A DNA stretch of 64,000 nucleotides from an uncultured Clostridia bacterium (GTDB lineage: Bacteria > Bacillota > Clostridia > Christensenellales > UBA1242). The position numbers and the translations under genes are program-made. The notes below the pieces were generated by a model. It worked only from the letters and a program-made list of their open reading frames with translations, did no database searches and was not told where the DNA came from. The stretch lies in assembly GCA_944372365.1 (NCBI GenBank), contig CALVYP010000001.1, forward strand, positions 85,279 through 149,278. The letters are read 5' to 3'. Position 1 is the first letter of the stretch. Every line of letters starts with the position of its first letter. Positions 36,327 to 60,326 of the stretch are shown piece by piece.

Positions 36327-36523
36327 CGCTGCGAAATATCATTTATTTAAACGATAAAAAAAGAAGAAAAAAATTTTTTAATTTTTTTTAAAAAAATATG
36401 TAAAATCGTTTGGTGATTATTTTTTTTTATGCTAATATGTGTTTGTAAATAAGATTGAATATTAAATCTTTTTTTACAAATATTAAAAAAGAAAGCATTT
36501 TGTCAAACTTCAACCTATTTCAA

Positions 36524-36623
36524 ACATAAGGAGGATGGGCGGAAGGTTGCTGAAAGAATGGCAACAAACATGGCAGAGTGTGAAATGGAGGTTTTCTTAT
36601 GAATCTATTTTCTTTATTAGGTG
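36524..36623 (+). repeat. left arm of the ~100-bp inverted repeat (5' UTR, SD, ATG and first 8 codons of the pilin-like gene)
   Basis: Its reverse complement matches 37063..37163 apart from about 4 mismatches and 1 indel. Confidence 0.9.
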
Positions 36624-36985
36624 CTTCTGTTAGCGGCTGGACTGATTTGGCTGATAAGCTTGAGCAAGATTGGATAAAGCAAATGTTTGATATTTTAAGC
36701 CCTATCCTTTGGGCGATCATGGCGGTTGTGGGCGCAGCTGGCATTGTTTATTCTGTTTTCTTGGGCGTAAACTTGGCAAGAGCAGAAGATCAATCCAAGC
36801 GTGACGAAGCTAAAAAGCGTTTGATTACAACAATTATTGCAGTTGCTGTTGTGGTTGTATTGATCATATTCTTCAACACGCTGCTGCCTATGATCATCGG
36901 CGCCTTCATTGATCCAACCAAAGATTTAGGAGGCAATGTTGAGACTGGTGGTGTAATTCAACTTGCCATTTCACTTATAAAATAA
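36599..36985 (+). CDS. small two-TM protein, TrbC/VirB2 pilin-like
   Basis: GGAGG SD. The TM1-charged loop-TM2 layout (ILWAIMAVVGAAGIVYSVFLGV-NLARAEDQSKRDEAKKR-LITTIIAVAVVVVLIIFF) resembles Gram-positive conjugative pilin-like proteins. Tentative. Confidence 0.45.
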   Translation: MNLFSLLGASVSGWTDLADKLEQDWIKQMFDILSPILWAIMAVVGAAGIVYSVFLGVNLARAEDQSKRDEAKKRLITTIIAVAVVVVLIIFFNTLLPMIIGAFIDPTKDLGGNVETGGVIQLAISLIK

Positions 36986-37003
36986 AATAATATAAAAAAT
37001 TAA

Positions 37004-37030
37004 ACGACCCTTTTGGGGTCGTTTTTTTTT
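37004..37030. terminator. bidirectional terminator inside the IR-bounded segment
   Basis: ACGACCC-ttttg-GGGTCGT followed by T9, with an A-run upstream. Confidence 0.8.
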
Positions 37031-37062
37031 GCGCGCGCCTTCCTACCAACTGTTAATTGCAT

Positions 37063-37163
37063 CACCTAATAAAGAAAATAGATTCATAAGAAAACCTCCA
37101 TTTCACACTCTGCCTTGTTTGTTGCCATTCTTTCAGCAACCTTCCGCCCCTCCCCCCTTATGT
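37063..37163 (-). repeat. right arm of the inverted repeat (it reads inward and encodes only MNLFSLLGDAINSW-stop)
   Basis: See the left arm. On the minus strand: ATGAATCTATTTTCTTTATTAGGTGATGCAATTAACAGTTGGTAG. Confidence 0.9.
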
Positions 37164-37266
37164 TTTTTAATGATTTATTGTGTTGTTGGCTTGAAAGCTT
37201 TTTGAAATGGATTTAATTTTTTAGTTGTAAAATTTTTAACTACATGCTATACTTTAAAGGATTGTT

Positions 37267-37359
37267 GGAGACGTATCGAAGTGGTCGTAACGAGCTTGAC
37301 TCGAAATCAAGTTGTCCGCTAACCCGGGCACGTGGGTTCGAATCCCACCGTCTCCGCCA
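37267..37359 (+). tRNA. tRNA-Ser (anticodon CGA)
   Basis: Acceptor GGAGACG/CGTCTCC, anticodon arm CTTGA-CTCGAAA-TCAAG, long variable arm, T-arm GTGGG-TTCGAAT-CCCAC, GCCA end. Promoter TTGTAA-N17-(TGc)TATACT at 37225..37253. Confidence 0.9.
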
Positions 37360-37464
37360 TAATTTTATCGCGGGGGTAAATGAAAAATATGCGCGGGCGG
37401 GCTATGCGCTAGCCGCGGCTATAAAACATTTGCAAACAAAAAAAAACACCGTTTGGTGTTTTTT

Positions 37465-41843: not shown

Positions 41844-42161
41844 ACAAACTCTCCCACAACAATTTATTCAAGAAAATAAAAAATTGTGAAAAATAATTAA
41901 ATAATAAAAAAATATTATAAAAATGCCTGTTTTTTATAAAAAAATTGATTTTTTTTGCGTATTTTTTAGAAATTATTTATTTTTAAAATTATTTTTTATT
42001 TTTATTTCAACAAATTATTTTGGCGCTTGGCTTTTCATAATGAAAAATATGTTTATTAAATAATTATATATTATATATATTACATACATAAATTATTTTG
42101 TTTTTGCAAAAAATTATGTTAGAATGTTTTTGTCAAAATATGACAAAAAGAGGTGTTTAGC

Positions 42162-45100
42162 ATGAACAAAATAAAAAAAGTTTTAAGCGGTTTTGTTTTG
42201 GGCGCGGCAGCAACTACAATGATTGTGGCGGGCAGCCTTTTTGCGCAACAAGAAAAAACCCAAACTTACAATGCTGCTGTAACCGAGCAACAAATTGTAA
42301 ACACGCTTCCAGCATTTGTAGATCAGTCCGGTTTGCAAAATGACTACTATTTCACCGAAGAAGTGCCAATCAAATTTAATGTTGCAGTGGAAGGTTCGTC
42401 AAGTGCTGATTATATCTTTAAATATTATCCAGATGGCACGGCAACCGATGAAGCAAAAAACCACTTTTATTATTTTGACATTGCAAGCGTTTCAATTTAT
42501 ATTGACAATGTTCGTTTAAACATAGCTGCAGAGAATGCTGAAAAATTGATTTTAAAATCGGCAGGCACTGTTTCAATAAATCAACAAGGCGGCGATCAGG
42601 CTGGACAAAGCAACATTTCGCCAGAGATCGTGTGCTTTAAAATTGTTTATGACTCCTCTGCAACAGAGCCGGGGGTGGTTGAAGGATCCGTTAAATACGA
42701 CAATAATAGCTACACAATCACTCCGGCAGAATTGCGCATCAACCAAACCGGCTTGCTTAGAGTTGATGTGCAGTATGACCTTTACGACACAACCAACATC
42801 AAGGGCGCAGGTGCTGGAAACGATATGCAAGTTTCAAACATCCACACATCGCAATCATTCTCATATTCTTGCTTCTTTTTAAATGCAAGTGACTATTTCG
42901 AATCTACCCTTGACAAGGATTCTCCAAAACTCACATACCCTGGCTTTACAAGAACGCCAAGTGAATCGGCAATTTATAGATACAACTATTTCTATAATTA
43001 CGGCACAAACTATCTGCCATACATATCTTTCGATCCAAGCAAAGTTAGGCTTGAAGTAACAAGATACTACAACAACCAAACTCAAAATGCGGTTTTGCAG
43101 TATAACCCAGAAGCGAACACCATCTCTCAACCAGATTTTGTTTATCAAACAATGATCATGCCAGACGGCAGCGCACGAGTTTATTTCAACGATGTTGGGC
43201 AATATAACTTTAATTTTGAATTTATATATATCGTTGAAAATCAAACTGACTATCAAATCTACACAGTAGATTATCTGCTGCCAGACCAAAAGGCATATCT
43301 GTTTGGTGCACAGCTTAATTTCACCAACTATCAAACAAACGAATACAACGAATTTAAGCAAATCGCAAACAAAACAACCGACTCGGACGAGATTGAATAC
43401 AATCAAATTCTTCAAAATGCAGATGTGACTTATCTGTATGGCGAATCAACTGGCAGCGAAGCATTTCGAGAGAGTTTTCTTGCAAAAGGAGCAAATGCAA
43501 ATGTCACTCCTGTTGCAACCGATCAAACGCCACTTCGTTTTACAACAAATTTAAGTCAACTTACAAGCGAAGAAGCTACATTGCAAGTTTGGAGACTTGG
43601 CACAGATGACTGGAAGGCATATGATAAAATAAGCGACATAACTTCAACCATCAACGAGTCTGGCACATACTTTATTGAACTTACATATGATTTTGCTTCT
43701 CACACCAACACTTCTGGCGCAATTGACTCAACCAATGGCAACAATCACTTTAAACAATATTTCTACTTTAAAATTGACAAAACCGCGCCTTTATTCACAA
43801 TGCAAGCGCGCGGCGATTACAATGAAAAAAACCAAACATACGACTGGAAACAACTTTTATCCAAAGAATACACAAACACAGAAGAAGTAAAACTTACATA
43901 CGCTGGCTTTTCAAACATCTTCCACTCGGCTGTAAGATTTGAATATGAAAGATATGACTTTATAAACGACGGATTCACTTCTGGCACAATACAATTTAAT
44001 GAAAATGGTGAATATATCTTTGATCAAGAAGGCAACTACACCATCAAAGTATACTACGGAAAGCAAGGCACCGCCCAAGATCCAAGCATATCTTCTTTCA
44101 CAATAGATAGACAACAAATTCAAGATTTGGCAGCGTATGCAGTAAGCACAAGCGGAGCCAACAACGACTATCACATCAGCAATCCGCTTAATCAATTTTC
44201 AACAAACCAAAACTTTGTTTTCTCTTGGCAAGTCACCAAACCAAGTGGCGCAAAAACATATGGTAAATATAAATACTTTGCCCTTGATTACACCGACTAC
44301 TACGCATCGGTTGCCTCGGATTCACTTTCACTATTGCTTGGCTCTTTGCTTAGAAACGGAATTTTGGCAACAGACGCAGTTTTGAATATGGGCAATGCCG
44401 AAAGCAACTCTTGGATTGATTATTCCAACGCTTCGGCTCTTATTCAAAACAACAACATCGTGCCTGCATCATATGTAAAATCAAACGCAGGGCTTTATAT
44501 CTTCCAAATCTACGACCAAGCAGGCAACAGCGAAATTTATGCTATCTTGCTTGATAACTCTCAGCCATACTTTGTTTTAGAAACAGATGAAGGCTATGCA
44601 CTCATCAGTGCCAACCACACGGTAACAAGCGATGCAGTCCTTCATTGGGCCGACAACAAAGCAATTCAAGTAAACGGCTTTGTTAACGGTGATTTTAATG
44701 AAAAAGTTTATTACAACAAAGACGGCAAAATGGACGACGAAATTGTAAGTGCTTTGCAGCAGTTAAAAGATTCTATTAAAACCTTTGCTGCTTCTTCCAC
44801 CAGCGATTCAATAGGCTATGGCAAAGACGGAAGCTACTATCTATGCGAAATTGATGACACATTCTTGTTTAAACATAAAGACACCGAAACATACACCTTA
44901 GAAACCGGCAACAGCATGAACATTCAGTTCTCCTACACTGTGCACTACACGCTTGTTAATGGGCTTTACACATTCTACTATTCAACCACAAACGACTCAA
45001 ACTATATCGATGCGGCAACTGGCGAAATTGTTGAAGCACTTATTTTCAATGATGTGCCACAGATTAACGGAAACGAACTGCACGACGCAAACATATATCT

Positions 45101-48100
45101 TTACCAAGCAAATGGACAAAGGGCTTTCTACTACGGCGTGCCTGGCTCGCTAAACCTTTTCTCAACAACTGGTGAAGCTGTGACAGCAACCGAAGGTGAA
45201 AACGGGCTTATGCTTAATGGCGTTGCTTTGCAAGCCACAAACTTTGTGGATATGGAAGGCACATATGTGTTCTTAATTAGAGATGCATCAAACACAGAAG
45301 GGTCAAACCTTTCAGAAGATCAAAAGTTTATGCAATATGCTTCCAACTATCAATACCTGCGTGTAACCGGCGATCAATCTCTCACACAAATTTACTACAA
45401 AGAAACTAACGGACAGGGCGAAGAGAACTTGGTTACACTTACCGACGCATCATATGCAAACATCAGTGTTGTAAACACAGATCAAAACTGGATGGCAAGA
45501 TCAAGCTACTACAACCCTACTTCAATAGAGCAAACTCTTTACCTTTCGTTTAGGCCAACAATCGAACATGACGACAACACAAAAACACAAGTTGATCAAA
45601 TTGTGTTAAGTTACTATCCATATCAAAACCAAATTAAAACATACTACACTTCAACTGGACAGGTTAGATATGTGTTCTACAAAACACTTGCGTCAACGCC
45701 TGAATTTACACAAGTTGTATATGATTTTGATGAAAACGGCGCAAACACTCAAACCATTGAAGAGCCAATTCACATTACTTCAAACATGACAAGCGAAGGC
45801 AGGTATATTGTTACAAGAACATATGTTATGGAAGAAGGCTACACAGTTGATGTTTTTGACTACTATCAAAGAAACATCACCGCAACAGTTGACAGATATG
45901 GCGTGCTTACCCTGCCTGAAACAATCAGCTACAGCGCCGAAGTAAAATCTTACTCGCTAGATAATAACCAAAAAAATGTAACGGCAACTTTATATGAAAA
46001 CCTGCTTGTTCTGTCAACGCCACAAAACGGCAGCCTCCGCCCATTCGATGGCATAACTTTGAAATACAAGGCAACAGAAGATGGCGAAGAACTTGACACC
46101 GATAACATCACAACGGAAGACATTTATACAAACGATACAGCACTCCGCTTCTATCAATTTGATCAAATTTATTCATACGAATTGTATTATGCTGGCAATA
46201 AGGTTGACGCCTCTGGCACTGATGTTGTTGTTGACGACTCGCTTGAAAGCATCGTCGGCGGCGACATGATGATAAACATGTATGACGGCATAGTTGAGAA
46301 CTCTGGTATAATTTCAGTGGCCTTTCCATACTATGAAGCTGATTCAATCTTGCCGTCTGGCGACAGTTTCTACACCGAGAACATAACAAACTGGACGGAA
46401 AATGACAATGTAAACCCAACCCTTATCACAAACAAACTGCCGGTTAAGGTTTACATACCGCAATATAAATATACAATTCAAAACACAGAATCAGAAGTAG
46501 AAGCAAGCCAAGATGGTTTTTCAAAAGCGTATTCAAATGTCGCAAACGATTATTTGATAAGATTTAACCAAAATGATGAATATTCTGTCGTTTCATACTA
46601 TCAGCTTGTTGCAAGCATCTCTTACACAAGCAGCGATGGCAAAACTCACACATTCACTTCCACAACTGGAACTGACGGATACTTGGCGTTTGTTGATGAA
46701 ACAGGCTTGCCAGTGGAGCATTTTACACAACCTGGCACTTACTATGTAACCATAACGCAAGGCTATAACTCTGACTCAAATTCAAGCAACAATTTTAGAA
46801 AGAACTATAAATTTGCTTTCACTATTCAAAACAATAAGCCAGAGTTTACAATCACTCAATCCGGCGCTCCGCTTTCAACACTTGACGACGAAGAAAGCGT
46901 TGAAGTGCCAAACTACTACACAAATTCTAAAACAATCACCTATTCTTGGGAAGATTTAAATAATCAATACATTGCAAACATAGATAAAAAGAACATTGCA
47001 ATCACCTATTACGCTTCTATTTTATCAACAGCAATTGAAAATGTAATTCAAATAGACAATGGCATCCTTTCGCTGCAAAAAGAAAATCCGTTGTTGCTTA
47101 ACGCTCTTTCCTACACAAGCACAACCGACAGCCGCGGCGTGACAACCAACTATCTTACAATAGATTTGCAGGCACTTGGAATCTACCAAAACAATGCCGG
47201 CGTAAGATTGACCATGCAGTTTGAAGGGCACAATGATGATTACTACAAAACAACAACCAAACTTGTGACGGTTGATAAGCAAGCGTCATATCAAACAGTA
47301 AACTCGTTGATCGAAAAACTTCAAGGGCTTTCATCGGCTGGGCTGACACTTAATGACTCATCACTTAGAACTTACTTAGATGTTGAATATAAACAAGTTT
47401 CCAGCGCATATGATGCAGCCTACAACATCACAACCAATGCAACCGCAGGACAATTTAGAAATTACAGCTATCTTGTAGACGCAGCATTCTTTGATGAGCT
47501 GAAAGATATGGCGAATCAAAATGCAAACCAAGACAATGCAAGCAATTATAATGGTGGCACAATAAGGGCATACTTCCGTGAGATTGACGACCCTTACAAC
47601 AGCACCTATGAAGAATCTTACAGCGATTTTGCAGCGGCGTCTTACATCGATATGTCAAGCTCGGATGCAAACAGCTATCTGGAACAAAACAAATATTATC
47701 AAATTGTTGAAGAAGACTTGGCTGGCAACCTGACATTCTATATTGTTTACTACTTCTCTGTTGATGATGGCACTGGCTATCAACCAGATGACCAATATGA
47801 TGAAGAAGGCATGCCTATAACAATCTATCAAGGCATCACTTTCACCGATCATGACACAGTAAAATATGCAAGTGACGCTCAAATTGCAACCGGCAAGCTT
47901 AACTTATATTCATCAACAAACTTCACTCTCGACAACTTAAACTATCAAGGCGACGGCTGGCTTATCATCACAATCAATGGCGAAACATTTATGACAAGCC
48001 CATGGCTGGATGCAGGAAATGTTTACAAAGTTTCGCAAGGGCAAATTCAAACTGTTTCATTTGCAAGCATATTCCAACAATTTGCTTCGTCAAGCACTCC

Positions 48101-50945
48101 AATTGCGCTCACATTGTCGAACCGCTTCACAGGCAACTTTGCAGCGGTAAACCTTACCCTGCTTGATGGCGTTCAGCTTAACACAACGCTTTCATCTTCA
48201 CAGGTTGAAGAGTTTGTGAATGTTTCATATTCAAACGCAGTGTTCCCTGTTGAAATTGAAATTTCAAACAACAATTCGCTTGTCTTCGCTGACTCAAATA
48301 ATCCAAACAGCTTAGATAACCTTACAAATGCAAGCTATGTTTATTCAGCCGGCTGGCAAAGCGCGAACGACATTATTGTAACGCTTCAAGATATGTATTC
48401 TCGCTTTAACTTTGCATTCAGCACATTGCCTGCAAGCGACAGCAAAATTAGATACGCCATCACCGACAACTTTGGCAACACAACAATTTTAGTGCATATC
48501 TTTGGGCAATCTGCAATTCAAGAAATCACAAGCGAAGCAAACAGATATGAAGTGCAAATCAACGATCAAACAACTGACGGCAAACTTGTAACCTACAACA
48601 TCAGCCCTGTTTCGTTAAACTATAACTTCAACTCACAGCTTCACTACGTTAAAGTTTTAACATGGGATGGTTTTAGCTGGCGCGACGCACTTATCAAAAC
48701 CGACTATAATTCATCTCAATCAGGATCGCTGGTTTCATATAAGTTTGAAAACCTTGCAGGTGGCGATCTTGCAAACTTAAAATTTAAACTTAGAGTTTAT
48801 GAAGTTTCAGAAGATCAAGAGCTTGCAAGCGACGATGAATCGCTGTGGGTAAAAGATGTATATCTGCAAATTTATCAAATGCTTCCACACCTTCTTGATG
48901 CAGAAGAAGAAGCAAGCAACTTTGTTTCAAGCTTGCGTTTCACCGACAACTACGGCGAAAATGTGACTAATGAAATTTTAACCGATCTCACTTCCTATCG
49001 TGTTAACATTGGTGGAACAACCTACACCGTGACAAAATCTGGTCAAACCTTTGCAAGCAGGCTGACACTCACCTATTCAAACTCAGCAAACTTTGACTTC
49101 CCATTCACTGTGCAGGTTTACAAAGAAGATGGCTCGATGGGTTCAAACTTTGTTGAAATTCCATCCGGCAGCAATCTTTCACAAAGCGGCATTTACTACT
49201 TCCTTGTAAAATATACTGACTCGCTCACCAACGAATACAATCTCTATCGCATTGAAATTTTGGATTCTTCAACCGAATTCTATCGCGTAACAAACAACGG
49301 CAGAGTGGTTGAAAAAGCATCCACCTACTATAAAGATTCTTCGGGCATGGAGCATTCAGAATATTACATAGTAAATGTTAACTACAACACTTCGTCATCA
49401 CTTGTGGAAATTGTGCCAAATGATTATCAAAACATCACAGTTACACAAATTGGCAGCCCAATTTCAGAAGGCAACAATGTTATAACCGTTGCATATCGTG
49501 TAACCAACTATGTTGACAACACGCGCCCAAGCGGCGGAGTATCACCTTTTGACAGAACGGTGTTTATCACTTACATTCCACCAACATCCTCACCTGTCAC
49601 AGAGGCTTACTTCACATATAATTCTGCCGAACAAACCGACATGCTTTCACAAAGCTCAATTGTATCGGCAATCAGCATTGAAAATGTTGATTCTGGCGCA
49701 CTTACAATTTACTTCTCGCAATCATACGGCCTTGCAAGCAACTTGATTAACATTTCAGTGCTTAAAGACGGCGTTGCTTACTATCCACAAGTGCAAACAA
49801 CATCATCAAACGGCAGAACACTTTCATATGTTCAACTTGATCGCTCTGGCACTTACTCAATTTCATTCACTGACACAGCTGGAAACCAACAGGTGTTTGC
49901 TTCTGGCACAAGCATGGCATCAACTTCTCTTTCACTGCTGTTCCTTAAAGATGTGTCATTCTCAATGACATTCACCGATGCCAACGGCATGCAACAAACA
50001 ACCGATCCTATTCAAAAAGGTGTGTTTAACAGGCAGGTTAGCCTTAACCTGATAAACCCTAACGCTTACTACACCGCACAATCAATAGGAAGCGGAGCAA
50101 ACATGATTACTGCAACAAAAAATGGTGAGCCTTACAGCAACTTCACCTACGACGCACAAACATCATCATTTACATTCGCAGAACCTGGATATTACAGCGT
50201 ATACTTCTCAGCAACCGCATCAAATGGAATTGAACTTAGGCATGAGATTTACAACTTCACCATAGTAAACCCAAGCGAATCAAGATACTCACTTGAATTC
50301 TCGCCATATGAAGATTACTACATCAAATCTATTGTAAAAGATGATTTGGGCGACATAACAAAAACCGCTGACGGCAAAGTGCCTCAACAGTTTAAAGATA
50401 ATTTCCAAACCATAGTTGTTGATGGGCAGGAATATCTTAAAAATGTGGTGGCTTCATTCCAAGATTCATTCACTGGCGAAGGTTACTACACAATCACAAT
50501 TGCAACCAATCAAACATTAAATCGTGATGACTACACCACGCCAACAGAATTTTCATTCAGTTTCTGGATCAACACAAGCGATGTTCCAATCGATGTTTCA
50601 GTTATTGAAGGAGAATCATCATCAAACGACATAACCGTGTCATTTAACTCTGAAAGAGTGTTTGAGGCAGTTGGTGAATGCACAATCTATGTTGCAAACA
50701 ACGCCTTCCACATCAGCGCCGACAACCTTGCACAACTTGGCACAGTTACTGTAACAATCTCAAGCGCAGGCACTTACTTTATAACAGTAAGGTCGATGAG
50801 CGGAAACTTGCTTTACAGCTATAAAGTGGTTAAAACCGAACCGCTAAACGGCTGGGCAATCGCGGCAATAGTTATCGGCGGAGTTGTTGCAATCGCTGTT
50901 GTGATTATAATCATCAAAACTCGAAAGAGAATTAAGGTTAAATAA
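42162..50945 (+). CDS. giant (2927 aa) secreted surface protein with a C-terminal TM tail anchor
   Basis: AGAGGTG SD. Signal peptide MNKIKKVLSGFVLGAAATTMIVAGSLFAQQ. N/T/S/Y-rich throughout. The C-terminus GWAIAAIVIGGVVAIAVVIIIIKTRKRIKVK is a TM helix plus a basic tail. No LPXTG motif. Confidence 0.85.
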   Translation: MNKIKKVLSGFVLGAAATTMIVAGSLFAQQEKTQTYNAAVTEQQIVNTLPAFVDQSGLQNDYYFTEEVPIKFNVAVEGSSSADYIFKYYPDGTATDEAKNHFYYFDIASVSIYIDNVRLNIAAENAEKLILKSAGTVSINQQGGDQAGQSNISPEIVCFKIVYDSSATEPGVVEGSVKYDNNSYTITPAELRINQTGLLRVDVQYDLYDTTNIKGAGAGNDMQVSNIHTSQSFSYSCFFLNASDYFESTLDKDSPKLTYPGFTRTPSESAIYRYNYFYNYGTNYLPYISFDPSKVRLEVTRYYNNQTQNAVLQYNPEANTISQPDFVYQTMIMPDGSARVYFNDVGQYNFNFEFIYIVENQTDYQIYTVDYLLPDQKAYLFGAQLNFTNYQTNEYNEFKQIANKTTDSDEIEYNQILQNADVTYLYGESTGSEAFRESFLAKGANANVTPVATDQTPLRFTTNLSQLTSEEATLQVWRLGTDDWKAYDKISDITSTINESGTYFIELTYDFASHTNTSGAIDSTNGNNHFKQYFYFKIDKTAPLFTMQARGDYNEKNQTYDWKQLLSKEYTNTEEVKLTYAGFSNIFHSAVRFEYERYDFINDGFTSGTIQFNENGEYIFDQEGNYTIKVYYGKQGTAQDPSISSFTIDRQQIQDLAAYAVSTSGANNDYHISNPLNQFSTNQNFVFSWQVTKPSGAKTYGKYKYFALDYTDYYASVASDSLSLLLGSLLRNGILATDAVLNMGNAESNSWIDYSNASALIQNNNIVPASYVKSNAGLYIFQIYDQAGNSEIYAILLDNSQPYFVLETDEGYALISANHTVTSDAVLHWADNKAIQVNGFVNGDFNEKVYYNKDGKMDDEIVSALQQLKDSIKTFAASSTSDSIGYGKDGSYYLCEIDDTFLFKHKDTETYTLETGNSMNIQFSYTVHYTLVNGLYTFYYSTTNDSNYIDAATGEIVEALIFNDVPQINGNELHDANIYLYQANGQRAFYYGVPGSLNLFSTTGEAVTATEGENGLMLNGVALQATNFVDMEGTYVFLIRDASNTEGSNLSEDQKFMQYASNYQYLRVTGDQSLTQIYYKETNGQGEENLVTLTDASYANISVVNTDQNWMARSSYYNPTSIEQTLYLSFRPTIEHDDNTKTQVDQIVLSYYPYQNQIKTYYTSTGQVRYVFYKTLASTPEFTQVVYDFDENGANTQTIEEPIHITSNMTSEGRYIVTRTYVMEEGYTVDVFDYYQRNITATVDRYGVLTLPETISYSAEVKSYSLDNNQKNVTATLYENLLVLSTPQNGSLRPFDGITLKYKATEDGEELDTDNITTEDIYTNDTALRFYQFDQIYSYELYYAGNKVDASGTDVVVDDSLESIVGGDMMINMYDGIVENSGIISVAFPYYEADSILPSGDSFYTENITNWTENDNVNPTLITNKLPVKVYIPQYKYTIQNTESEVEASQDGFSKAYSNVANDYLIRFNQNDEYSVVSYYQLVASISYTSSDGKTHTFTSTTGTDGYLAFVDETGLPVEHFTQPGTYYVTITQGYNSDSNSSNNFRKNYKFAFTIQNNKPEFTITQSGAPLSTLDDEESVEVPNYYTNSKTITYSWEDLNNQYIANIDKKNIAITYYASILSTAIENVIQIDNGILSLQKENPLLLNALSYTSTTDSRGVTTNYLTIDLQALGIYQNNAGVRLTMQFEGHNDDYYKTTTKLVTVDKQASYQTVNSLIEKLQGLSSAGLTLNDSSLRTYLDVEYKQVSSAYDAAYNITTNATAGQFRNYSYLVDAAFFDELKDMANQNANQDNASNYNGGTIRAYFREIDDPYNSTYEESYSDFAAASYIDMSSSDANSYLEQNKYYQIVEEDLAGNLTFYIVYYFSVDDGTGYQPDDQYDEEGMPITIYQGITFTDHDTVKYASDAQIATGKLNLYSSTNFTLDNLNYQGDGWLIITINGETFMTSPWLDAGNVYKVSQGQIQTVSFASIFQQFASSSTPIALTLSNRFTGNFAAVNLTLLDGVQLNTTLSSSQVEEFVNVSYSNAVFPVEIEISNNNSLVFADSNNPNSLDNLTNASYVYSAGWQSANDIIVTLQDMYSRFNFAFSTLPASDSKIRYAITDNFGNTTILVHIFGQSAIQEITSEANRYEVQINDQTTDGKLVTYNISPVSLNYNFNSQLHYVKVLTWDGFSWRDALIKTDYNSSQSGSLVSYKFENLAGGDLANLKFKLRVYEVSEDQELASDDESLWVKDVYLQIYQMLPHLLDAEEEASNFVSSLRFTDNYGENVTNEILTDLTSYRVNIGGTTYTVTKSGQTFASRLTLTYSNSANFDFPFTVQVYKEDGSMGSNFVEIPSGSNLSQSGIYYFLVKYTDSLTNEYNLYRIEILDSSTEFYRVTNNGRVVEKASTYYKDSSGMEHSEYYIVNVNYNTSSSLVEIVPNDYQNITVTQIGSPISEGNNVITVAYRVTNYVDNTRPSGGVSPFDRTVFITYIPPTSSPVTEAYFTYNSAEQTDMLSQSSIVSAISIENVDSGALTIYFSQSYGLASNLINISVLKDGVAYYPQVQTTSSNGRTLSYVQLDRSGTYSISFTDTAGNQQVFASGTSMASTSLSLLFLKDVSFSMTFTDANGMQQTTDPIQKGVFNRQVSLNLINPNAYYTAQSIGSGANMITATKNGEPYSNFTYDAQTSSFTFAEPGYYSVYFSATASNGIELRHEIYNFTIVNPSESRYSLEFSPYEDYYIKSIVKDDLGDITKTADGKVPQQFKDNFQTIVVDGQEYLKNVVASFQDSFTGEGYYTITIATNQTLNRDDYTTPTEFSFSFWINTSDVPIDVSVIEGESSSNDITVSFNSERVFEAVGECTIYVANNAFHISADNLAQLGTVTVTISSAGTYFITVRSMSGNLLYSYKVVKTEPLNGWAIAAIVIGGVVAIAVVIIIIKTRKRIKVK

Positions 50946-54264: not shown

Positions 54265-55998
54265 TCACATTTTATCAGGCACTTCGATTGCCAAAATATC
54301 GCACGCTTCTTCGATAAATTTCAACACGATTTTAAGCAAAGTTAAATGCGCACTTTGAAGGCTTTTGTCTTGTTCTGACAAAATGTGGCAAGAATTGTAA
54401 AAACTTGAAAACGCACTTGCAAGATCATACAAACTTCCGCAAAGATCGTTTAGACTTTTGTTTTCAAAACATATGCGATAAGACGAGGCCAAACGGTTTA
54501 GCGAGATAAGCATTTCTTTATGCTGCGACGAGAAACTATAATTCTCTTCAAACTTTGGTGCTTTTGATAAAATTGATTTAATCCTGCATGCTGTGTATTG
54601 AATATACGGCCCTGTTTTGCCATCAAACGACAGCACTCTGTCAACATCAAAGTTATAGTCTTTTTCAACGCTGTTGGATAGGTCGGCAAACTTTAATGCG
54701 GCATTGCCAATCTTGCGTTTTAAATCATCATCATGCTCAGTGCCGTTTTCAACAAGTTTTTGTTCGGCTTTTTCGTAAAGCATATTCAAAAGGTCGCTTA
54801 ACTGCATATTGCCGCCGTCACGAGTTTTAAGCGCCTTGCCATCCTTGCCGTTTATCGTGCCAAAGCCTGTGTGCAACAAAAGTTGCTCTTGCGGCGAAAT
54901 GCCCGACTTTTTGCACGCCCTGAAAATTTGAATAAACCTTTGATTTTGCCTTGCATCGGTGAAATAATGAATGATGTCAGGATGATAGAACTTGTTTCTA
55001 TAATATATCGTTGCAATGTCGCTGGTTTCATATTTATCGCCGCCATTTGACTTTTTAAGCATCAGCGGCGGCATTGGATTTTCATATCTCTGCACTTCAT
55101 CAGGCGACTTTTTTGGAATTGGAATTTGTTCGCCTTCTTCGGCAACATCCACCACAAGCGCGCCTTCGCTTATGCGAGAAAGTTTTTTCTCTTCAAAAAT
55201 TTTCAATATGGTTGAAACATATTCGCTTGCATTGCTTTCGCCGTTCCATAAATCAAAATCCACATTCAAAAGCTTACAAACTTTTTTTATTTCTGCAACC
55301 GACACGTCACGCAGCCTTTTCCAAAAATCATAATAAGGTTGCTGCTTTTGCTGGAAAAATAGTGTGATCTGCTCTGCGCGCTGCTTAAACTTTTCATCTT
55401 GCGTTTTAAGTTGGCTCGCCTGCGGATATGCTGTGTTCATCACTTCGATGGTAAGCTGCTTTTTGCCAGAGTAATAATCGTCAAACACGCCTTGCTTTTC
55501 AAGCATAGCCATGATAAGCCCCATAGGCATGCCCCAATCACCGAGAAAAATGTCGCTTACAGTTTCAAAACCAAGTTTTCGGTAAAGCCTTTTAAAAGCT
55601 TCGCCAATGTTAAACGAACGCATATGCCCAATATGCATAGCCTTGCCAATGTTTGGCCCACCATAGTCTAAAAAGATTTTTTTGCCGTCTCCTAAATTGA
55701 ATTGTTGAGAAAGCAAAACCTGCGACATGTGCTTTAACCCTTGGTTTGTAAGGGTTATGTTTATAAACGCAGGACGCGCCACCGAAAATGTAAAAAACTG
55801 ATTTTGAGGGATTGCTTCAACAATTTGGCATGCTAAATCATATGGATTTTTGCCAAGTTTTTTGGCAACAGCAAAGCATGAGTTGCATTGAAAATCGCAT
55901 AAATTTGGCATCGCAGAAAAAGATACGCAAAAGTTTTCATCAATATTTTGCGTTTTTGCCGCTTCGCATAAAAGTTTTTGAATTTCATCCCTAATCAA
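54265..55998 (-). CDS. argS: arginine--tRNA ligase
   Basis: GPNIGKAMHIGHMRS (HIGH motif). 577 aa. C-terminal anticodon-binding region. Its start overlaps the recR stop by 4 nt. Confidence 0.9.
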   Translation of the reverse strand: MIRDEIQKLLCEAAKTQNIDENFCVSFSAMPNLCDFQCNSCFAVAKKLGKNPYDLACQIVEAIPQNQFFTFSVARPAFINITLTNQGLKHMSQVLLSQQFNLGDGKKIFLDYGGPNIGKAMHIGHMRSFNIGEAFKRLYRKLGFETVSDIFLGDWGMPMGLIMAMLEKQGVFDDYYSGKKQLTIEVMNTAYPQASQLKTQDEKFKQRAEQITLFFQQKQQPYYDFWKRLRDVSVAEIKKVCKLLNVDFDLWNGESNASEYVSTILKIFEEKKLSRISEGALVVDVAEEGEQIPIPKKSPDEVQRYENPMPPLMLKKSNGGDKYETSDIATIYYRNKFYHPDIIHYFTDARQNQRFIQIFRACKKSGISPQEQLLLHTGFGTINGKDGKALKTRDGGNMQLSDLLNMLYEKAEQKLVENGTEHDDDLKRKIGNAALKFADLSNSVEKDYNFDVDRVLSFDGKTGPYIQYTACRIKSILSKAPKFEENYSFSSQHKEMLISLNRLASSYRICFENKSLNDLCGSLYDLASAFSSFYNSCHILSEQDKSLQSAHLTLLKIVLKFIEEACDILAIEVPDKM

Positions 55999-56588
55999 AT
56001 TTCAACTCTTCCTTCCATCGCCTTTGAAAGTGTGATTTCATCGGCGTATTCTAAATCGCTGCCAGTGGATATCCCCTGTGCCAGCCTTGTAACTTTAATG
56101 CCCATGGGTTTTAATATTTTTGCCACATACATAGCAGTGGCATCGCCTTCAACATCGGGTGGCGTTGCCATTATAACTTCCTCAGTGCCAAGCTGATTGA
56201 TGCGTTGTAAAAGCTGCTTGATGTGGATGTCGTTTGGGCCTTTGTTTTCAAGCGGACTGATAAGCCCAAAAAGAACATGGTAAACGCCATCAAAACTTTT
56301 TATCTTTTCGATGGAAAGAATATCTTTTGGCTCTTTAACCACGCAAATGGTTTTTCCGCTACGGCTTTGGCATATGTCGCAAACAGGTTTGTCGGTGTAA
56401 TTTCCGCACTTTTGGCAAAGCCCAATTTTTTGCTTGACATCTTTTATCGCGTCGGCAAAATTATCGGCGCGCTCGCTGCTGCCTTCAATAATTGAGTAGG
56501 CATAGCGCTGAGCGGTTTTGTATCCAACGCCCGGCAAGCTGCGAAAATACTCTATCAGCCTTTCAATAGGTTCGTCAAACTTAGCCAT
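55995..56588 (-). CDS. recR: recombination protein RecR
   Basis: LIEYFRSLPGVGYKTAQRYAY (HhH), a C4 zinc finger CQKCGNYTDKPVCDIC, and a Toprim region. Confidence 0.95.
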   Translation of the reverse strand: MAKFDEPIERLIEYFRSLPGVGYKTAQRYAYSIIEGSSERADNFADAIKDVKQKIGLCQKCGNYTDKPVCDICQSRSGKTICVVKEPKDILSIEKIKSFDGVYHVLFGLISPLENKGPNDIHIKQLLQRINQLGTEEVIMATPPDVEGDATAMYVAKILKPMGIKVTRLAQGISTGSDLEYADEITLSKAMEGRVEI

Positions 56589-56591
56589 TTT

Positions 56592-56909
56592 TTACATCCC
56601 TGGAATTTGAGGAATTGTTTGCTTTTCCTCTATATCAATTTTTGCCATAACATCATTGAATGCAGATACAATCAAATCTTCCAGCATTTCAACATCATCT
56701 GGATCGACAACTTCTTTTTTAATTTTTATTTGTTTAAGCGTTTTGTCGCCAAGCATGGTGATTTCAACCATTCCGCCGCCAACTACGCTGGAAAACTCTT
56801 TCGCGTCAAGCTCTGCCCTTGCCCTTTGCATTTCTTGCTGCATTTTTTGTGCTTGGCGCATGAGTTGTTGCATGTTGCCTCCGCCAAATCCGCCAAATCC
56901 GTATGCCAT
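56592..56909 (-). CDS. ybaB: YbaB/EbfC-family nucleoid-associated protein
   Basis: NMQQLMRQAQKMQQEMQRARAEL..GGGMVEITMLGDKTLKQIKIKKEVVDPDDVEMLEDLIVSAFNDV. Confidence 0.95.
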   Translation of the reverse strand: MAYGFGGFGGGNMQQLMRQAQKMQQEMQRARAELDAKEFSSVVGGGMVEITMLGDKTLKQIKIKKEVVDPDDVEMLEDLIVSAFNDVMAKIDIEEKQTIPQIPGM

Positions 56910-56918
56910 ATTATCCTC

Positions 56919-57284
56919 CTAATTTAAAATTTCAAATTTTTTGCCAAACATTTTTTGCAGCAGTGCCTTGTCTTCATCTGCTGCGGTTGGTTTAAGCACT
57001 TTTTGCATTATTTTAACATCAAGTTCCGCGCCCTGCCAACTGAGCGCACGCTGTATTTCGCGCTTGCCGTCTTCAAGCAATGCAAACACTGTGTTGTCGG
57101 GAGTTGTGATTACAAGCGCGCCGTCAGTTATCTCAACTTCGGTTATATCGCCGCAAGCCACATGCATAGCCACATGGTTGTGCTCTTTCAAAAACAACAC
57201 CACCTTTCCCCACACGTCTTTTGCGCTGCCCTGCATAGGCTTTTTAATTGTCAGTTTTTTTTTGCGTCTTCGCCATTGATGCAT
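56919..57284 (-). CDS. dnaX: C-terminal (tau-specific) part of DnaX, in the -1 frame relative to the upstream dnaX ORF
   Basis: KDVWGKVVLFLKEHNHVAMHVACGDITEVEITDGALVITTPDN.. resembles the C-terminal domain of Gram-positive DnaX. The frame is entered at the A9 tract 57255..57263. The ATG of the listed ORF has no SD. Confidence 0.6.
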   Translation of the reverse strand: MHQWRRRKKKLTIKKPMQGSAKDVWGKVVLFLKEHNHVAMHVACGDITEVEITDGALVITTPDNTVFALLEDGKREIQRALSWQGAELDVKIMQKVLKPTAADEDKALLQKMFGKKFEILN

Positions 57285-58402
57285 GAAATTGCCACACTTT
57301 CAATCAACAGCCTTGTTGAAAGAGTGTAGCGCAACTGATTTTCACAAGCAGCAAAATTTTGCATGTATAAAATAAGTTGCCCATCAGTTGCCTTATCCGC
57401 TTGTTGCATATATTTTTGCAGAACATCGCCGGCAAAATTTAAAATTTCTTGTGGATTTTCACATGTTTTGCAAACAAGCAAATCTCTGGCATGCTTTGCA
57501 AGGTCTTTAACAAAAACCGCAAGATTTTTGCCCATGCGATCAATTTTATTCACAAGCGACAGCACCCCGCCAATATCCTTATCAATAATTTTGTCAAACA
57601 TTTCAATCATAAGGTCATGATCGGTTGTGCCAAGCACTTTAAGCACATCTTCTTTTGTTATATTCCCGCCCGCATAAGCATTTATGCTGTCAGCGATTGA
57701 AAGGGTGTCTCGCACACTGCCTTCGCCGCTTGCGGCGATCATCTTAACTGCCTCTGGCTGCGCGTTGATGCCTTCACTTTCAAAAACATGATCAAGCACT
57801 TTGCATAGATCGTCGGTTGAAAGCAACCTAAAATCAAACCTTGAGCACCTTGAAAGAATGGTGGCAGGAAGCTTTTGCACTTCGGTGGTTGCCAAAATAA
57901 AAATCACATACTTTGGCGGCTCTTCAAGTGTTTTTAAAAGCGCGTTGAATGCGCTGTCTGAAAGCATATGCACTTCGTCGATGATGTAAACTTTATATTT
58001 CGCACCGATAGGTGCAAACTTAACTTTTTCTCTTAGCTCGCGAATATCATCCACGCGGTTGTTTGAAGCTGCATCTATTTCAATAACATTGATGTCGTTT
58101 TCAGCGCTCAGCCTTTTGCACACTTCACACTCGCCACATGGTGAGCCAGTTGTGTTGTTGATGCAATTCACAGCCTTGGCAAATATTTTTGCAACGCTGG
58201 TTTTGCCAGTTCCGCGTGAGCCTGTAAAAAGATAGGCATGCGAAATTTTGCCAGCCAAAATTTGGTTGGCAAGCGTTTTTGTGATGTGCTGCTGCCCAAC
58301 AACTTCTTCAAAAGTTTTTGGCCTGTATTTGCGATACAGCGCCAGATGAGTGTTTTCCATGGCCATATTATACAATTTTTCCTTTTGTTTGTCCAGTGTC
58401 AC
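57251..58402 (-). CDS. dnaX: DNA polymerase III subunit gamma/tau; the zero-frame product is 383 aa
   Basis: YRKYRPKTFEEVVGQQH.., Walker A GSRGTGKTS, Zn module CGECEVC, Walker B YIIDEVHML, and SRC motif LSRCSRF. It ends ..GEDAKKN-TGA immediately after the A9 run. Confidence 0.9.
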   Translation of the reverse strand: MTLDKQKEKLYNMAMENTHLALYRKYRPKTFEEVVGQQHITKTLANQILAGKISHAYLFTGSRGTGKTSVAKIFAKAVNCINNTTGSPCGECEVCKRLSAENDINVIEIDAASNNRVDDIRELREKVKFAPIGAKYKVYIIDEVHMLSDSAFNALLKTLEEPPKYVIFILATTEVQKLPATILSRCSRFDFRLLSTDDLCKVLDHVFESEGINAQPEAVKMIAASGEGSVRDTLSIADSINAYAGGNITKEDVLKVLGTTDHDLMIEMFDKIIDKDIGGVLSLVNKIDRMGKNLAVFVKDLAKHARDLLVCKTCENPQEILNFAGDVLQKYMQQADKATDGQLILYMQNFAACENQLRYTLSTRLLIESVAISCINGEDAKKN

Positions 58403-59148
58403 TTTATATTGTTTGCAATGTTTAAAAACGCATCGACATTCAGCGAAAGCCCGCCGATCAACCCGCCGTCGATTCCTGTGGCGTTAAGCAGAGGTGAATA
58501 ATTTTTTTCGTTGATGCTTCCGCCGTAAAGCACTTGAATGTCGCGGCTAGCTTTTTCAGAAAAGTTTTCTAAAACCACCTTTCTTATAACTTTTGCTGCG
58601 TTTTCAACATCTTTAACCGATGCGTTGTTGCCTGTTCCAATAGCCCAAACAGGTTCATAGGCGATGATCACACTTTCAAGTTCGTTTTCATAAAGCCCGC
58701 GCAAATCTTCTTCAAGCTGCTTGCGAATGACTTCATATGTGCGCTCGGTGTTTCTATCCGCCAAGCTTTCACCAACACACACGATGCATTTTAAGCCATT
58801 TTTAAGCGCGGTTTTAATTTTTTTGTTTACAAGCCTATCGCTTTCCTTGAACTTAATTCTTCTGTCGCTGTGCCCTATCAAAACATATTCAACGCCGCAT
58901 GCTTTAAGCATTTTGGCGCTAACTTCACCTGTAAACGCACCTTGCTCTTCATCGCTGACATTTTGCGCGCCAATTTTAACTGGGCTTGAATCTGTTAAAA
59001 ACTTTGCAAGCGGAATGCTTACATATGATGGACAGATTACAACATCCGCCCTTACGCCAGTAAACTGCGCAGCAAACTTGGTGAAATATTGCTTAACTTG
59101 ATCTGGCTGTTCGTTCATTTTAAAGTTTGCAACAATCAATTTTTTCAT
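58399..59148 (-). CDS. tpiA: triosephosphate isomerase
   Basis: VANFKMN, GHSDRR and AYEPVWAIGTG motifs. Confidence 0.95.
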   Translation of the reverse strand: MKKLIVANFKMNEQPDQVKQYFTKFAAQFTGVRADVVICPSYVSIPLAKFLTDSSPVKIGAQNVSDEEQGAFTGEVSAKMLKACGVEYVLIGHSDRRIKFKESDRLVNKKIKTALKNGLKCIVCVGESLADRNTERTYEVIRKQLEEDLRGLYENELESVIIAYEPVWAIGTGNNASVKDVENAAKVIRKVVLENFSEKASRDIQVLYGGSINEKNYSPLLNATGIDGGLIGGLSLNVDAFLNIANNIK

Positions 59149-60326
59149 ATATATTTCTCCTGAATAACTTCGATACCCGGAAGTTCTGCTCCTTCAAGCA
59201 ATTTTAGTGTAGCGCCGCCACCTGTTGAAACATGGTTGATCAAATTTAAGCAACGCGCTTGTTTAACCGCGCTCACGCTATCCCCGCCACCAACAATTGA
59301 ATAGGCATTGCTGTGCCCAATGGCTTTGGCGATTTCAAAAGTGCCTTTTTTAAATTTGTCATCTTCATACTTGCCAAGCGGCCCATTCCAAATCACTTGT
59401 TTTGCCTCGTCAATCTCTTTTTCAAACATCTTTATTGTTTTTGGGCCAATGTCACTGCCAACCATTTCACCTGATAGCGTTTCGGTTACAAATGTTCGCT
59501 GCTTCTTGTCTGCGTAATCATACGCAACATGATCAACTGGAAGCAACAACTTTTTACCAGCGGCCTGCGCCTGATTTAAAATTTCTTCGGCTGTTTTAAC
59601 GCTTTCCATGCTTGAAAAACTTCTACCGATTGTCTGCCCGCGCGCCATCATAAATGAATATGCCATTGCTCCGCCTATAAGCACGCTGTCGGCAGTTTTT
59701 AAGATGTTTAAAATTGCATCTATTTTATCTTCCACCTTAGCGCCGCCAAAGATTGCCACAAACGGGCTTTTTGGATTTTCTAACGCGTTGGTTATGATGT
59801 TTATTTCATTTTCAACTAAAAAGCCAATCGCATTTGGCAAAAGCCTTGCCACGCCATAAGTTGAAGCATGCTTTCTGTGGGCAACACCAAAAGCATCGTT
59901 TACATATATGTCAGCAAGCGAAGCAAGTTGCTTTGCAAAGTTTGGATCATTTTCGGTTTCTTCTTTATAAAACCTTACATTTTCAAGCAAAAGAATAGAG
60001 CCGTTTGAAAGGCTGTCGACTTGCAGTTTAACTTCATCGCCCACAACTTTATGCGCAAACTGCACTTTGCCTGGGAAATATTTCATAAGCATAAGCGAGA
60101 TTGGCCAAAGTGACAGCCTAAAATCAAAGCCCTTAGGCCTGCCCAAATGTGAACAAATGATGACCTTTGCGCCACGCTCCACCAAAAATCTTATGGTTGG
60201 AAGTTCGTTTACAAGCCTTGTTGTGTCGGTAAATCTGCCAACCTTATTCATAGGAAGGTTAAAATCTGCTCTTAGCAAAATTTTTTTGCCTTCAATGTTA
60301 ACTAAATCTCTTATGCTTCTTTTCAT
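59145..60326 (-). CDS. pgk: phosphoglycerate kinase
   Basis: LLRADFNLPM.., SHLGRPKG, and C-terminal STGGGATLKLLEG. Confidence 0.95.
   Translation of the reverse strand: MKRSIRDLVNIEGKKILLRADFNLPMNKVGRFTDTTRLVNELPTIRFLVERGAKVIICSHLGRPKGFDFRLSLWPISLMLMKYFPGKVQFAHKVVGDEVKLQVDSLSNGSILLLENVRFYKEETENDPNFAKQLASLADIYVNDAFGVAHRKHASTYGVARLLPNAIGFLVENEINIITNALENPKSPFVAIFGGAKVEDKIDAILNILKTADSVLIGGAMAYSFMMARGQTIGRSFSSMESVKTAEEILNQAQAAGKKLLLPVDHVAYDYADKKQRTFVTETLSGEMVGSDIGPKTIKMFEKEIDEAKQVIWNGPLGKYEDDKFKKGTFEIAKAIGHSNAYSIVGGGDSVSAVKQARCLNLINHVSTGGGATLKLLEGAELPGIEVIQEKYI

Follow-up and report, generated by a model that had tools for sequence, protein, structure and literature searches.

How does a bacterium make the tau subunit of its DNA polymerase III when the reading frame of dnaX closes before the tau-specific part of the gene is reached? 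This question is raised by a stretch of 64,000 nucleotides (nt) from an uncultured Clostridia bacterium (GenBank assembly GCA_944372365.1, contig CALVYP010000001.1, positions 85,279 to 149,278), which is referred to below, at its full length, as the window. In this window the minus-strand dnaX mRNA reads ...GGC GAA GAC GCA AAA AAA AAC TGA, so that a run of nine A's (A9) is followed at once by a stop codon, and a conserved tail continues in the -1 frame. Comparisons with relatives show that the arrangement is real and conserved and almost certainly functional, and it very likely represents programmed recoding by which the A9 tract yields two products, one gamma-like and the other tau. The production of both proteins, their ratio and the machine that slips are what we infer from the DNA.

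The split gene and its two halves

The A9 tract (Table 1) contains two in-phase -1 heptamers, A_AAA_AAA and A_AAA_AAC, neither of which is A_AAA_AAG, and its length is also sufficient for slippage by RNA polymerase. The zero frame ends at a TGA (57253-57251). The tail frame, which can be entered only by a -1 shift or by one A inserted into the mRNA, is open from the tract to a TAA (56921-56919) and adds 111 residues that begin KKKLTIKKPMQGSAKDVWGKVV...; its peptides include VVLFLK, EIQR and ALSWQGAELDVK. In the list of open reading frames (ORFs) the tail frame appears as an ORF of 121 amino acids (aa) at 56919..57284. The longest zero-frame ORF has 383 aa (57251..58402), with GTG 58402 as its first possible start. 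This GTG overlaps the tpiA stop in a GTGA arrangement at 58399-58402. Because the proteins of relatives are 366-375 aa long, the true start is likelier to be ATG 58366 (371 aa) or ATG 58360 (369 aa), and the full recoded product would accordingly be 482 aa from ATG 58366, or 494 aa from GTG 58402.

The N-terminal part matched PRK05563 (6.5e-152) and TIGR02397 dnaX_nterm (3.5e-133) in NCBIfam, and DNA_pol3_delta2, DNAX_ATPase_lid and DNA_pol3_gamma3 in Pfam. On these profile matches the split gene is dnaX and the zero-frame ORF corresponds to DnaX domains I-III.

The 114-residue tail alone found no match in Pfam or NCBIfam, and a sequence search of the PDB with the tail profile returned only noise (PARP2, E ~0.6). 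Since a tblastn search with the tail found no match at E < 0.01 among 77 unsplit DnaX loci from other Firmicutes, the tail was identified by hhalign, in which the tails matched the C-termini of 16 unsplit Clostridia DnaX proteins (alignment A2) with a probability of 98.6% and E = 7.7e-16 across 106 aligned columns. The 25 tails aligned in A1 share the strongly conserved core WGKVVLFLKEH..ALHVACGDIT..GKREIE.AL.WQG. The AlphaFold2 model of the tail (predicted local distance difference test, pLDDT, 75.5) has the topology alpha-alpha-beta-beta-alpha-alpha-beta-alpha, and its top Foldseek matches were to DnaA domain I, namely 4tps (template-modelling score by target 0.69-0.71, root-mean-square deviation 2.4 Å), 2jmp and 2e0g, with DciA (8a3v) at ranks 24 and 27. 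The Foldseek E-values were weak, 0.013 at best, and DnaX domain V (2AYA) was absent from the 50 matches listed. According to Marsin et al. 2021 (PMC8216460), DnaX domain V (2AYA) has the KH type II fold in common with the N-terminal domains of DnaA and DciA. Based on the hhalign match to unsplit DnaX tails and the DnaA-domain-I-like predicted fold, the tail is identified as the canonical Firmicute tau-specific C-terminal domain with a KH fold. The linker between domain III and this domain is only ~15 residues long. In characterised systems the tau C-terminal domain couples the replicative polymerase to the clamp loader.

These results agree with what the initial annotation had read from the letters. 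It had recognised the gene as dnaX with the ATPase domains in the zero-frame product, which the PRK05563 match and the Pfam clamp-loader domains confirm; it had placed the A9 tract where Table 1 has it, with the zero-frame stop two codons on and the tau C-terminus in the -1 frame; and the likeness that it saw between the -1-frame residues and the C-terminal domain of Gram-positive DnaX is the one recovered by hhalign. The 383-aa zero frame that it gave holds for the GTG start, though the ATG start is likelier, and its figures of about 110 aa added and about 490 aa in total compare with the computed 111 residues and 494 or 482 aa.

Recurrence of the junction and selection on it

Homopolymers are error-prone on some sequencing platforms, and the split could in principle be an error of sequencing or assembly, the true genome carrying A10 and one continuous ORF. 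This trivial alternative, which the initial annotation had raised as an A9 called instead of an A10, is refuted by many independent assemblies. The exact 383-aa protein of the window (P0039) was found on two further independent ENA assemblies with an identical junction, and a species 92% identical (P0042) carried the short ORF on 18 contigs from separate samples, with A9 in all four of the loci fetched (L122-L125); the junction was identical to that of the window in the independent assemblies L120-L125. A metagenome scan gave 35 loci, and all 30 that held both halves were split (30/30), with exactly A9, the phase NNA AAA AAA AAC and the tail in the -1 frame. Searching with the tail returned 38 clusters, all of them short ORFs of 72-123 aa. 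When the fused protein was used as the query, the best 120 clusters, drawn from ENA, NCBI, JGI and Logan on contigs of up to 568 kb, comprised 111 short forms (366-393 aa), 100 of which ended in xKKN, and nine long forms (478-485 aa). An exhaustive hidden Markov model (HMM) search of 1.84 billion representatives yielded 145 tail-bearing proteins at the 50% level, all but ~5 of them short stand-alone ORFs, and many of the longer of these tail ORFs start ...(R/K)KKKLI(D/N)...

The same site was also observed far outside the close relatives of the window. Two deep relatives read GAA AAA AAA AAC TAA in their DNA, with the tail in the -1 frame, and this was reproduced in three SRA runs. Because the deep relatives (L126-L130) keep this sequence, the recoding site is far older than the short-linker clade to which the window belongs. 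The tails of L126-L130 are 196-233 aa long, the KH domain being separated from the tract by a long linker that is acidic or rich in Asn.

Two further observations might be taken to favour sequencing error: a minority of relatives have A10 and a continuous ORF (L001, L117-L119), and one assembly (L132, NCBI GCA_028748485.1, 1069-1240) shows an A10 junction followed by a second frame change at an A8 run ~160 nt downstream. As homopolymer errors are likely in the latter assembly, L132 was not used as evidence. Against these stand the identical A9 that the window shares with two independent assemblies carrying its exact protein, its recurrence in the 92%-identical species, the 30/30 split loci and the 111/120 short clusters; an error would not recur at one position and in one direction in more than 100 species while keeping a nearby zero-frame stop. 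We therefore regard sequencing error as effectively refuted, with next to no probability left to it.

The in-frame minority is informative in itself. The run is A10 in Candidatus Caccovivens faecavium (L001) and in L117-L119 (GTA or GCA, then AAA AAA AAA CTG) and A11 in L116 (CAA AAA AAA AAA TTG), and in each of the nine long clusters the junction is translated as ...KKKL.... In-frame forms make up ~8% of clusters (9 of the best 120) and always carry A10 or A11, never an interrupted tract. One of them, P0066, had A10 in two JGI samples. Because the nearest short-form neighbours of the long clusters differ from one another (71-94% identity), in-frame forms are found in at least six separate lineages. 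By these comparisons they arise repeatedly, always by lengthening of the run; in both genotypes (A9, and A10 or A11) the two non-tau frames close within 4-13 codons. Such scatter fits a slippage site of which both states are viable, and not error. The initial annotation had pointed to relatives with A10 and a continuous ORF as what would speak against recoding; these do exist, but only as a scattered minority of ~9/120 clusters that has kept the homopolymer. Its statement that recoding is needed for the long form stands, in that the frame as templated leads to the short form, both in the window and in ~92% of related clusters.

Purifying selection acts on the tail in the split genomes, with a median proportion of nonsynonymous differences (pN) of 0.28 versus 0.77 for synonymous ones (pS), and in the close pair L002/L097 the tails have pS 0.38 and pN 0.01 (dN/dS ~0.01). 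Pseudogene decay of the tail was rejected on account of this selection. Gene callers report the tail as a separate ORF of 72-233 aa, labelled 'hypothetical protein' at NCBI, and in the window an ATG is present nine codons after the tract, so we considered whether there might be two genes, the tail being translated from an internal start as a small protein beside a truncated DnaX. We scanned the tail frame from 60 nt upstream of the tract, or from the nearest in-frame stop within that distance, to the invariant Trp codon, and at 13 of 27 junctions there was no ATG, GTG or TTG at all. Where candidate starts were present they lacked an SD-like (Shine-Dalgarno-like) element in all but one case, and some of the starts chosen by gene callers lie inside the conserved core (P0011, P0014). 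A separate gene would also give no reason for the invariance of A9 or for the KKKL signature with which translation of the tail frame begins, and a tail made as a free protein would be unable to tether anything to the clamp loader. Since start codons are absent at 13/27 junctions and SD-like elements are nearly all missing, the tail does not look like an independently initiated gene, which makes the two-gene explanation extremely improbable; judged from these comparisons, the tail is expressed as a continuation from dnaX.

The existence of A9 and A10/A11 states across lineages, with at least six switches, also suggests phase variation at the DNA level, as homopolymers of 9-10 bases are mutable. 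Slipped-strand mispairing would then toggle A9 and A10, and cells would be either gamma-only or tau-producing, with no recoding. Under this explanation ~92% of lineages would be in a heritable gamma-only state, which should not be viable because the tau C-terminal domain is what connects the polymerase with the clamp loader. The states are, moreover, stable within 90%-identity clusters, as seen in P0042 (18 contigs, A9 in the four fetched), P0040 (14 fused members) and P0066 (A10 in both samples). The strong selection on the tail in split genomes, exemplified by L002/L097 with dN/dS 0.01, implies that the tail must be expressed from the A9 genotype. We thus consider phase variation very unlikely.

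Comparison of 27 distinct A9 junctions showed that all nine A's and the next C are 100% conserved, with flanking positions at 33-88%. Synonymous sites in the tail are saturated at the median pS given above, AAA is the codon for just 75% of Lys, and nowhere else in the 39 long ORFs of the window is KKK encoded as A9. Because A9 and the following C are invariant despite saturated synonymous sites, and no other KKK is coded by A9, the tract itself is under selection. The tract measures A9, or A10 when the codon before it ends in AA, the sole exception being an A7 variant (L131). At all 27 junctions the zero-frame stop lies 4-6 codons from the NNA codon, and the stop in the A8 frame within 4-13 codons.

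Long A/T runs are progressively excluded from the coding DNA of the window. For run lengths of 5 to 9 the share found in coding DNA is 84%, 74%, 55%, 43% and 25%, in a window that is 88% coding. There are four A/T runs of 9 and none longer; the dnaX A9 is the only coding one, and the other three are intergenic. These three are grouped at 36420-37446 (T9 36420, T9 37022 and A9 37438) and surround a small ORF and tRNA-Ser(CGA) at 37267-37359; they may be terminator or promoter tracts.

Possible routes to the tau product

Under the recoding that we propose, standard decoding of the templated A9 mRNA would meet the stop just past the tract and give a gamma-like subunit (domains I-III) of ~370 aa. 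In a fraction of cases expression would shift to the -1 frame at the tract and continue through the linker and the tau KH-fold domain to ~482 aa. As in Thermus, RNA polymerase would add one non-templated A on T9, and the resulting A10 transcripts would encode tau directly; the in-phase A_AAA_AAA and A_AAA_AAC may contribute some -1 ribosomal frameshifting. Within recoding, transcription is probably the main route. The transcriptional and ribosomal routes are not mutually exclusive, and the evidence from sequence leans to the transcriptional one.

Searches for RNA stimulators were negative. Neither the 70 nt after the tract nor the 60 nt before it folded better than shuffled sequences (mean z -0.5 and -0.6), and the predicted hairpins shared no position; RNAalifold on 20 junctions gave 0 consensus pairs; and an Rfam scan that included the DnaX element gave no match. 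No SD-like motif upstream was consistently placed across the junctions, GG-rich motifs being present in some lineages and absent in others. Transcriptional slippage is favoured because such stimulators were undetected, because A8 and A9 are invariant beyond the first heptamer, because the run is nearly always at least 9, and because in-frame relatives keep the homopolymer.

Several points weigh against transcription as the main route. The structure tests, on short and diverged coding DNA, could miss a weak or lineage-specific stimulator, and the invariant codon phase fits -1 ribosomal frameshifting equally well. A9 forms invariably have C as the next base, giving A_AAA_AAC. In L131 (~690-712 of a single 1.8-kb contig) the run is only A7, reading CAA CAA AAA AAC TAA, and the gene is nevertheless split, A_AAA_AAC keeping its phase and the tail lying in the -1 frame; this variant, if real, argues for a ribosomal component. 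AT-rich organisms may also suppress slippage on 9-nt runs (Baranov et al. 2005, PMC1088944).

The rival within recoding, which concerns the mechanism only, is that tau is made mainly by -1 programmed ribosomal frameshifting on A_AAA_AAA or A_AAA_AAC from homogeneous transcripts. It would account for two in-phase X_XXY_YYZ heptamers whose phase is invariant in all junctions, for the C kept after the run in A9 forms even when the tau codon changes from Leu (CTN) to Arg (CGA), and for the retention of both A_AAA_AAC and the split in the A7 variant. The zero-frame stop usually follows directly and could pause the ribosome. The dnaX of E. coli uses -1 frameshifting on A_AAA_AAG, and a Chlorobium candidate with a reversed arrangement of the frameshift type was named by Atkins et al. 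2016 (PMC5009743). However, no conserved downstream hairpin, upstream SD-like element or match to the Rfam DnaX element was detected, A_AAA_AAA and A_AAA_AAC are far less shift-prone than A_AAA_AAG in E. coli (PMC5009743), and the invariant phase may reflect common ancestry. Seven A's would suffice for the ribosome, yet A8 and A9 are invariant, AAG was never seen, and in-frame relatives always lengthen the run to A10 or A11. On balance, frameshifting as the principal route seems possible but rather unlikely, and slippage by RNA polymerase remains the route that we prefer.

A different kind of dnaX split was observed in another Clostridia lineage, known from two sequences only. In a metagenome-assembled genome (MAG) from goat cecum (RGIG1719, L008, 4132-4149), dnaX is split without a poly-A run, reading GGA GAG TGC CCC TAA G, and an independent 541-bp contig (L133, ~103-125) reads GGA GAT TGT CCC TAA A, with a tail 56% identical to that of L008. 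Both tails continue in the +1 frame (CCC -> CCT, then AAG or AAA), and GGAG lies 5 nt upstream of CCC. These may be prfB-like +1 programmed frameshift sites of the form GGAG-N5-CCC_TAA. We know of no description of a prfB-style +1 frameshift in dnaX.

Gene context, related systems and implications

The position of the junction among its neighbours is given in Table 1. The gene order around dnaX in the window was repeated, by Pfam labels, in the relatives L117 and L120-L122. Upstream neighbours vary by sublineage: the window and its close relatives have pgk-tpiA there, the P0066 lineage (L118, L119) gidA-gidB (mnmG-rsmG); downstream, ybaB and recR are constant across sublineages, and argS comes next in the window and in L118. 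Elsewhere in the window, a giant ORF of 2930 aa from GTG occupies 42153-50945 on the plus strand, and no rRNA and no tRNA-Lys gene was found in the 64 kb. The nearest named genome, Ca. Caccovivens faecavium, shows 61% identity over the best tblastn segment, and by sequence similarity this dnaX lineage is a large group of uncultured gut Clostridia related to Candidatus Caccovivens.

Table 1 Features of the dnaX junction and neighbouring genes in the window.
Feature	Coordinates	Strand	Remarks
A9 slippery tract	57255..57263	- (T9 on + strand)	phase GC[A AAA AAA AA]C
dnaX zero-frame ORF, clamp-loader domains I-III, predicted gamma-like product	57251..58366	-	371 aa from ATG 58366
-1-frame continuation, short linker and predicted tau C-terminal domain (KH type II, domain-V-like)	56919..57263	-
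Stretch closing both non-tau frames	57233..57254	-	zero frame: AAC TGA; A8-transcript frame: ACT GAC AAT TAA
ybaB/ebfC	56592..56909	-	next gene downstream; context, not part of the recoding signal
recR	55995-56588		downstream of ybaB/ebfC
argS	54265-55998		downstream of recR
tpiA	58399-59148		upstream of dnaX
pgk	59145-60326		upstream of tpiA

In E. coli, dnaX is recoded by a -1 ribosomal frameshift at A_AAA_AAG that is assisted by an upstream SD and a downstream stem-loop. The Clostridia gene resembles it in being the same gene with the boundary after domain III, in having an X_XXY_YYZ lysine heptamer and in giving gamma and tau a common N-terminus, but it differs in its reversed polarity, in its heptamers (A_AAA_AAA or A_AAA_AAC) and in having no detectable SD or stem-loop.

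A closer parallel is the two-ORF poly-A dnaX described in Chlorobi, Bacteroidetes and Verrucomicrobia, in which tau is made via recoding (Antonov et al. 2013, NAR 41:6514, PMC3711429), an arrangement restated by Atkins et al. 2016 (PMC5009743). That set held 17 genes from 12 genera, 12 of them with poly-A runs (nine A10 and one each of A9, A8 and A7), and the taxa in its supplement, namely Chlorobium, Prosthecochloris, Pelodictyon, Flavobacterium, Cytophaga, Capnocytophaga and Coraliomargarita, mostly have A10 followed by G (PMC3711429). In both settings the ORF for domains I-III ends just past the poly-A run and the tau part lies in the -1 frame of the DNA, the tract is conserved among relatives, and annotation pipelines overlook the arrangement. 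In contrast, the host of the window belongs to the Bacillota (Clostridia), its A9 is followed by C, its tail is of the Firmicute type and its linker is very short; the Clostridia recoding probably arose independently. The string 'Clostridi' is absent from the supplements of Antonov et al. 2013 (PMC3711429), and a full-text literature search of incomplete coverage on dnaX, slippage and Firmicutes, made for poly-A dnaX recoding in Firmicutes, gave only that paper. As far as the searched literature shows, the principle of poly-A recoding of dnaX for tau was thus published in 2013, and what is new here is the phylum Bacillota. The reversed polarity emphasised in the initial annotation holds in that tau is the recoded product here, but it was not new, as Antonov et al. 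2013 (PMC3711429) had it already.

The dnaX of Thermus thermophilus relies on transcriptional slippage on A9 (Larsen et al. 2000, as summarised in PMC1088944 and PMC5009743). The likeness lies in an A9 at the gamma/tau boundary, nearby stops in both alternative frames, no need of RNA stimulators and two products from one gene. The difference is that in Thermus tau is templated and gamma made by slippage, whereas the templated frame of the window is gamma-like and tau would need slippage; the A10 relatives (L001, L117-L119) reproduce the Thermus polarity. In Shigella flexneri mxiE and similar genes, as cited in PMC1088944, transcriptional slippage fuses two overlapping ORFs. mxiE is alike in that a non-templated nucleotide at a homopolymer is required for the longer fused product, and unlike in gene, function and tract, mxiE being a regulator and dnaX encoding an essential replication protein. 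A 'single-nucleotide role reversal' was predicted by Atkins et al. 2016 (PMC5009743).

Annotation of the MAGs of this group presents DnaX as a truncated gamma/tau protein and systematically leaves the essential tau tail as a 'hypothetical protein' of its own; because the two are annotated apart, hundreds of gut Clostridia genomes would have a mis-modelled core replication gene. NCBI labels the N-terminal part (P0138) as 'DNA polymerase III subunit gamma/tau [Clostridia bacterium]' and a tail ORF (P0029) as 'hypothetical protein [Treponema sp.]', the latter of which suggests a mis-binned contig. The pattern NNA AAA AAA AAC plus a stop, together with a -1-frame tail, could serve as an annotation rule, and sequencing error should not be the default verdict on a homopolymer 'frameshift' that is conserved across metagenome assemblies.

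To our knowledge, Firmicute DnaX is generally thought to make tau only. The findings would extend poly-A dnaX recoding, with tau as the recoded product, to the Bacillota. We tentatively suggest, as a reading that may prove wrong, that a gut Clostridia lineage has evolved its own gamma/tau dual coding, in which a stimulator-free A9 sets a near-1:1 ratio and flips between A9 and A10 are harmless. If this is true, the 'single-nucleotide role reversal' would be seen at work in nature in this lineage, with tau made by slippage from A9 and gamma made by slippage from A10. Repeated toggling between A9 and A10 with the homopolymer always kept is a natural experiment on how near 50% the recoding efficiency must be. 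The arrangement implies that a gamma-like clamp-loader subunit would be the default product in a Firmicute lineage, which bears on whether gamma has a function of its own.

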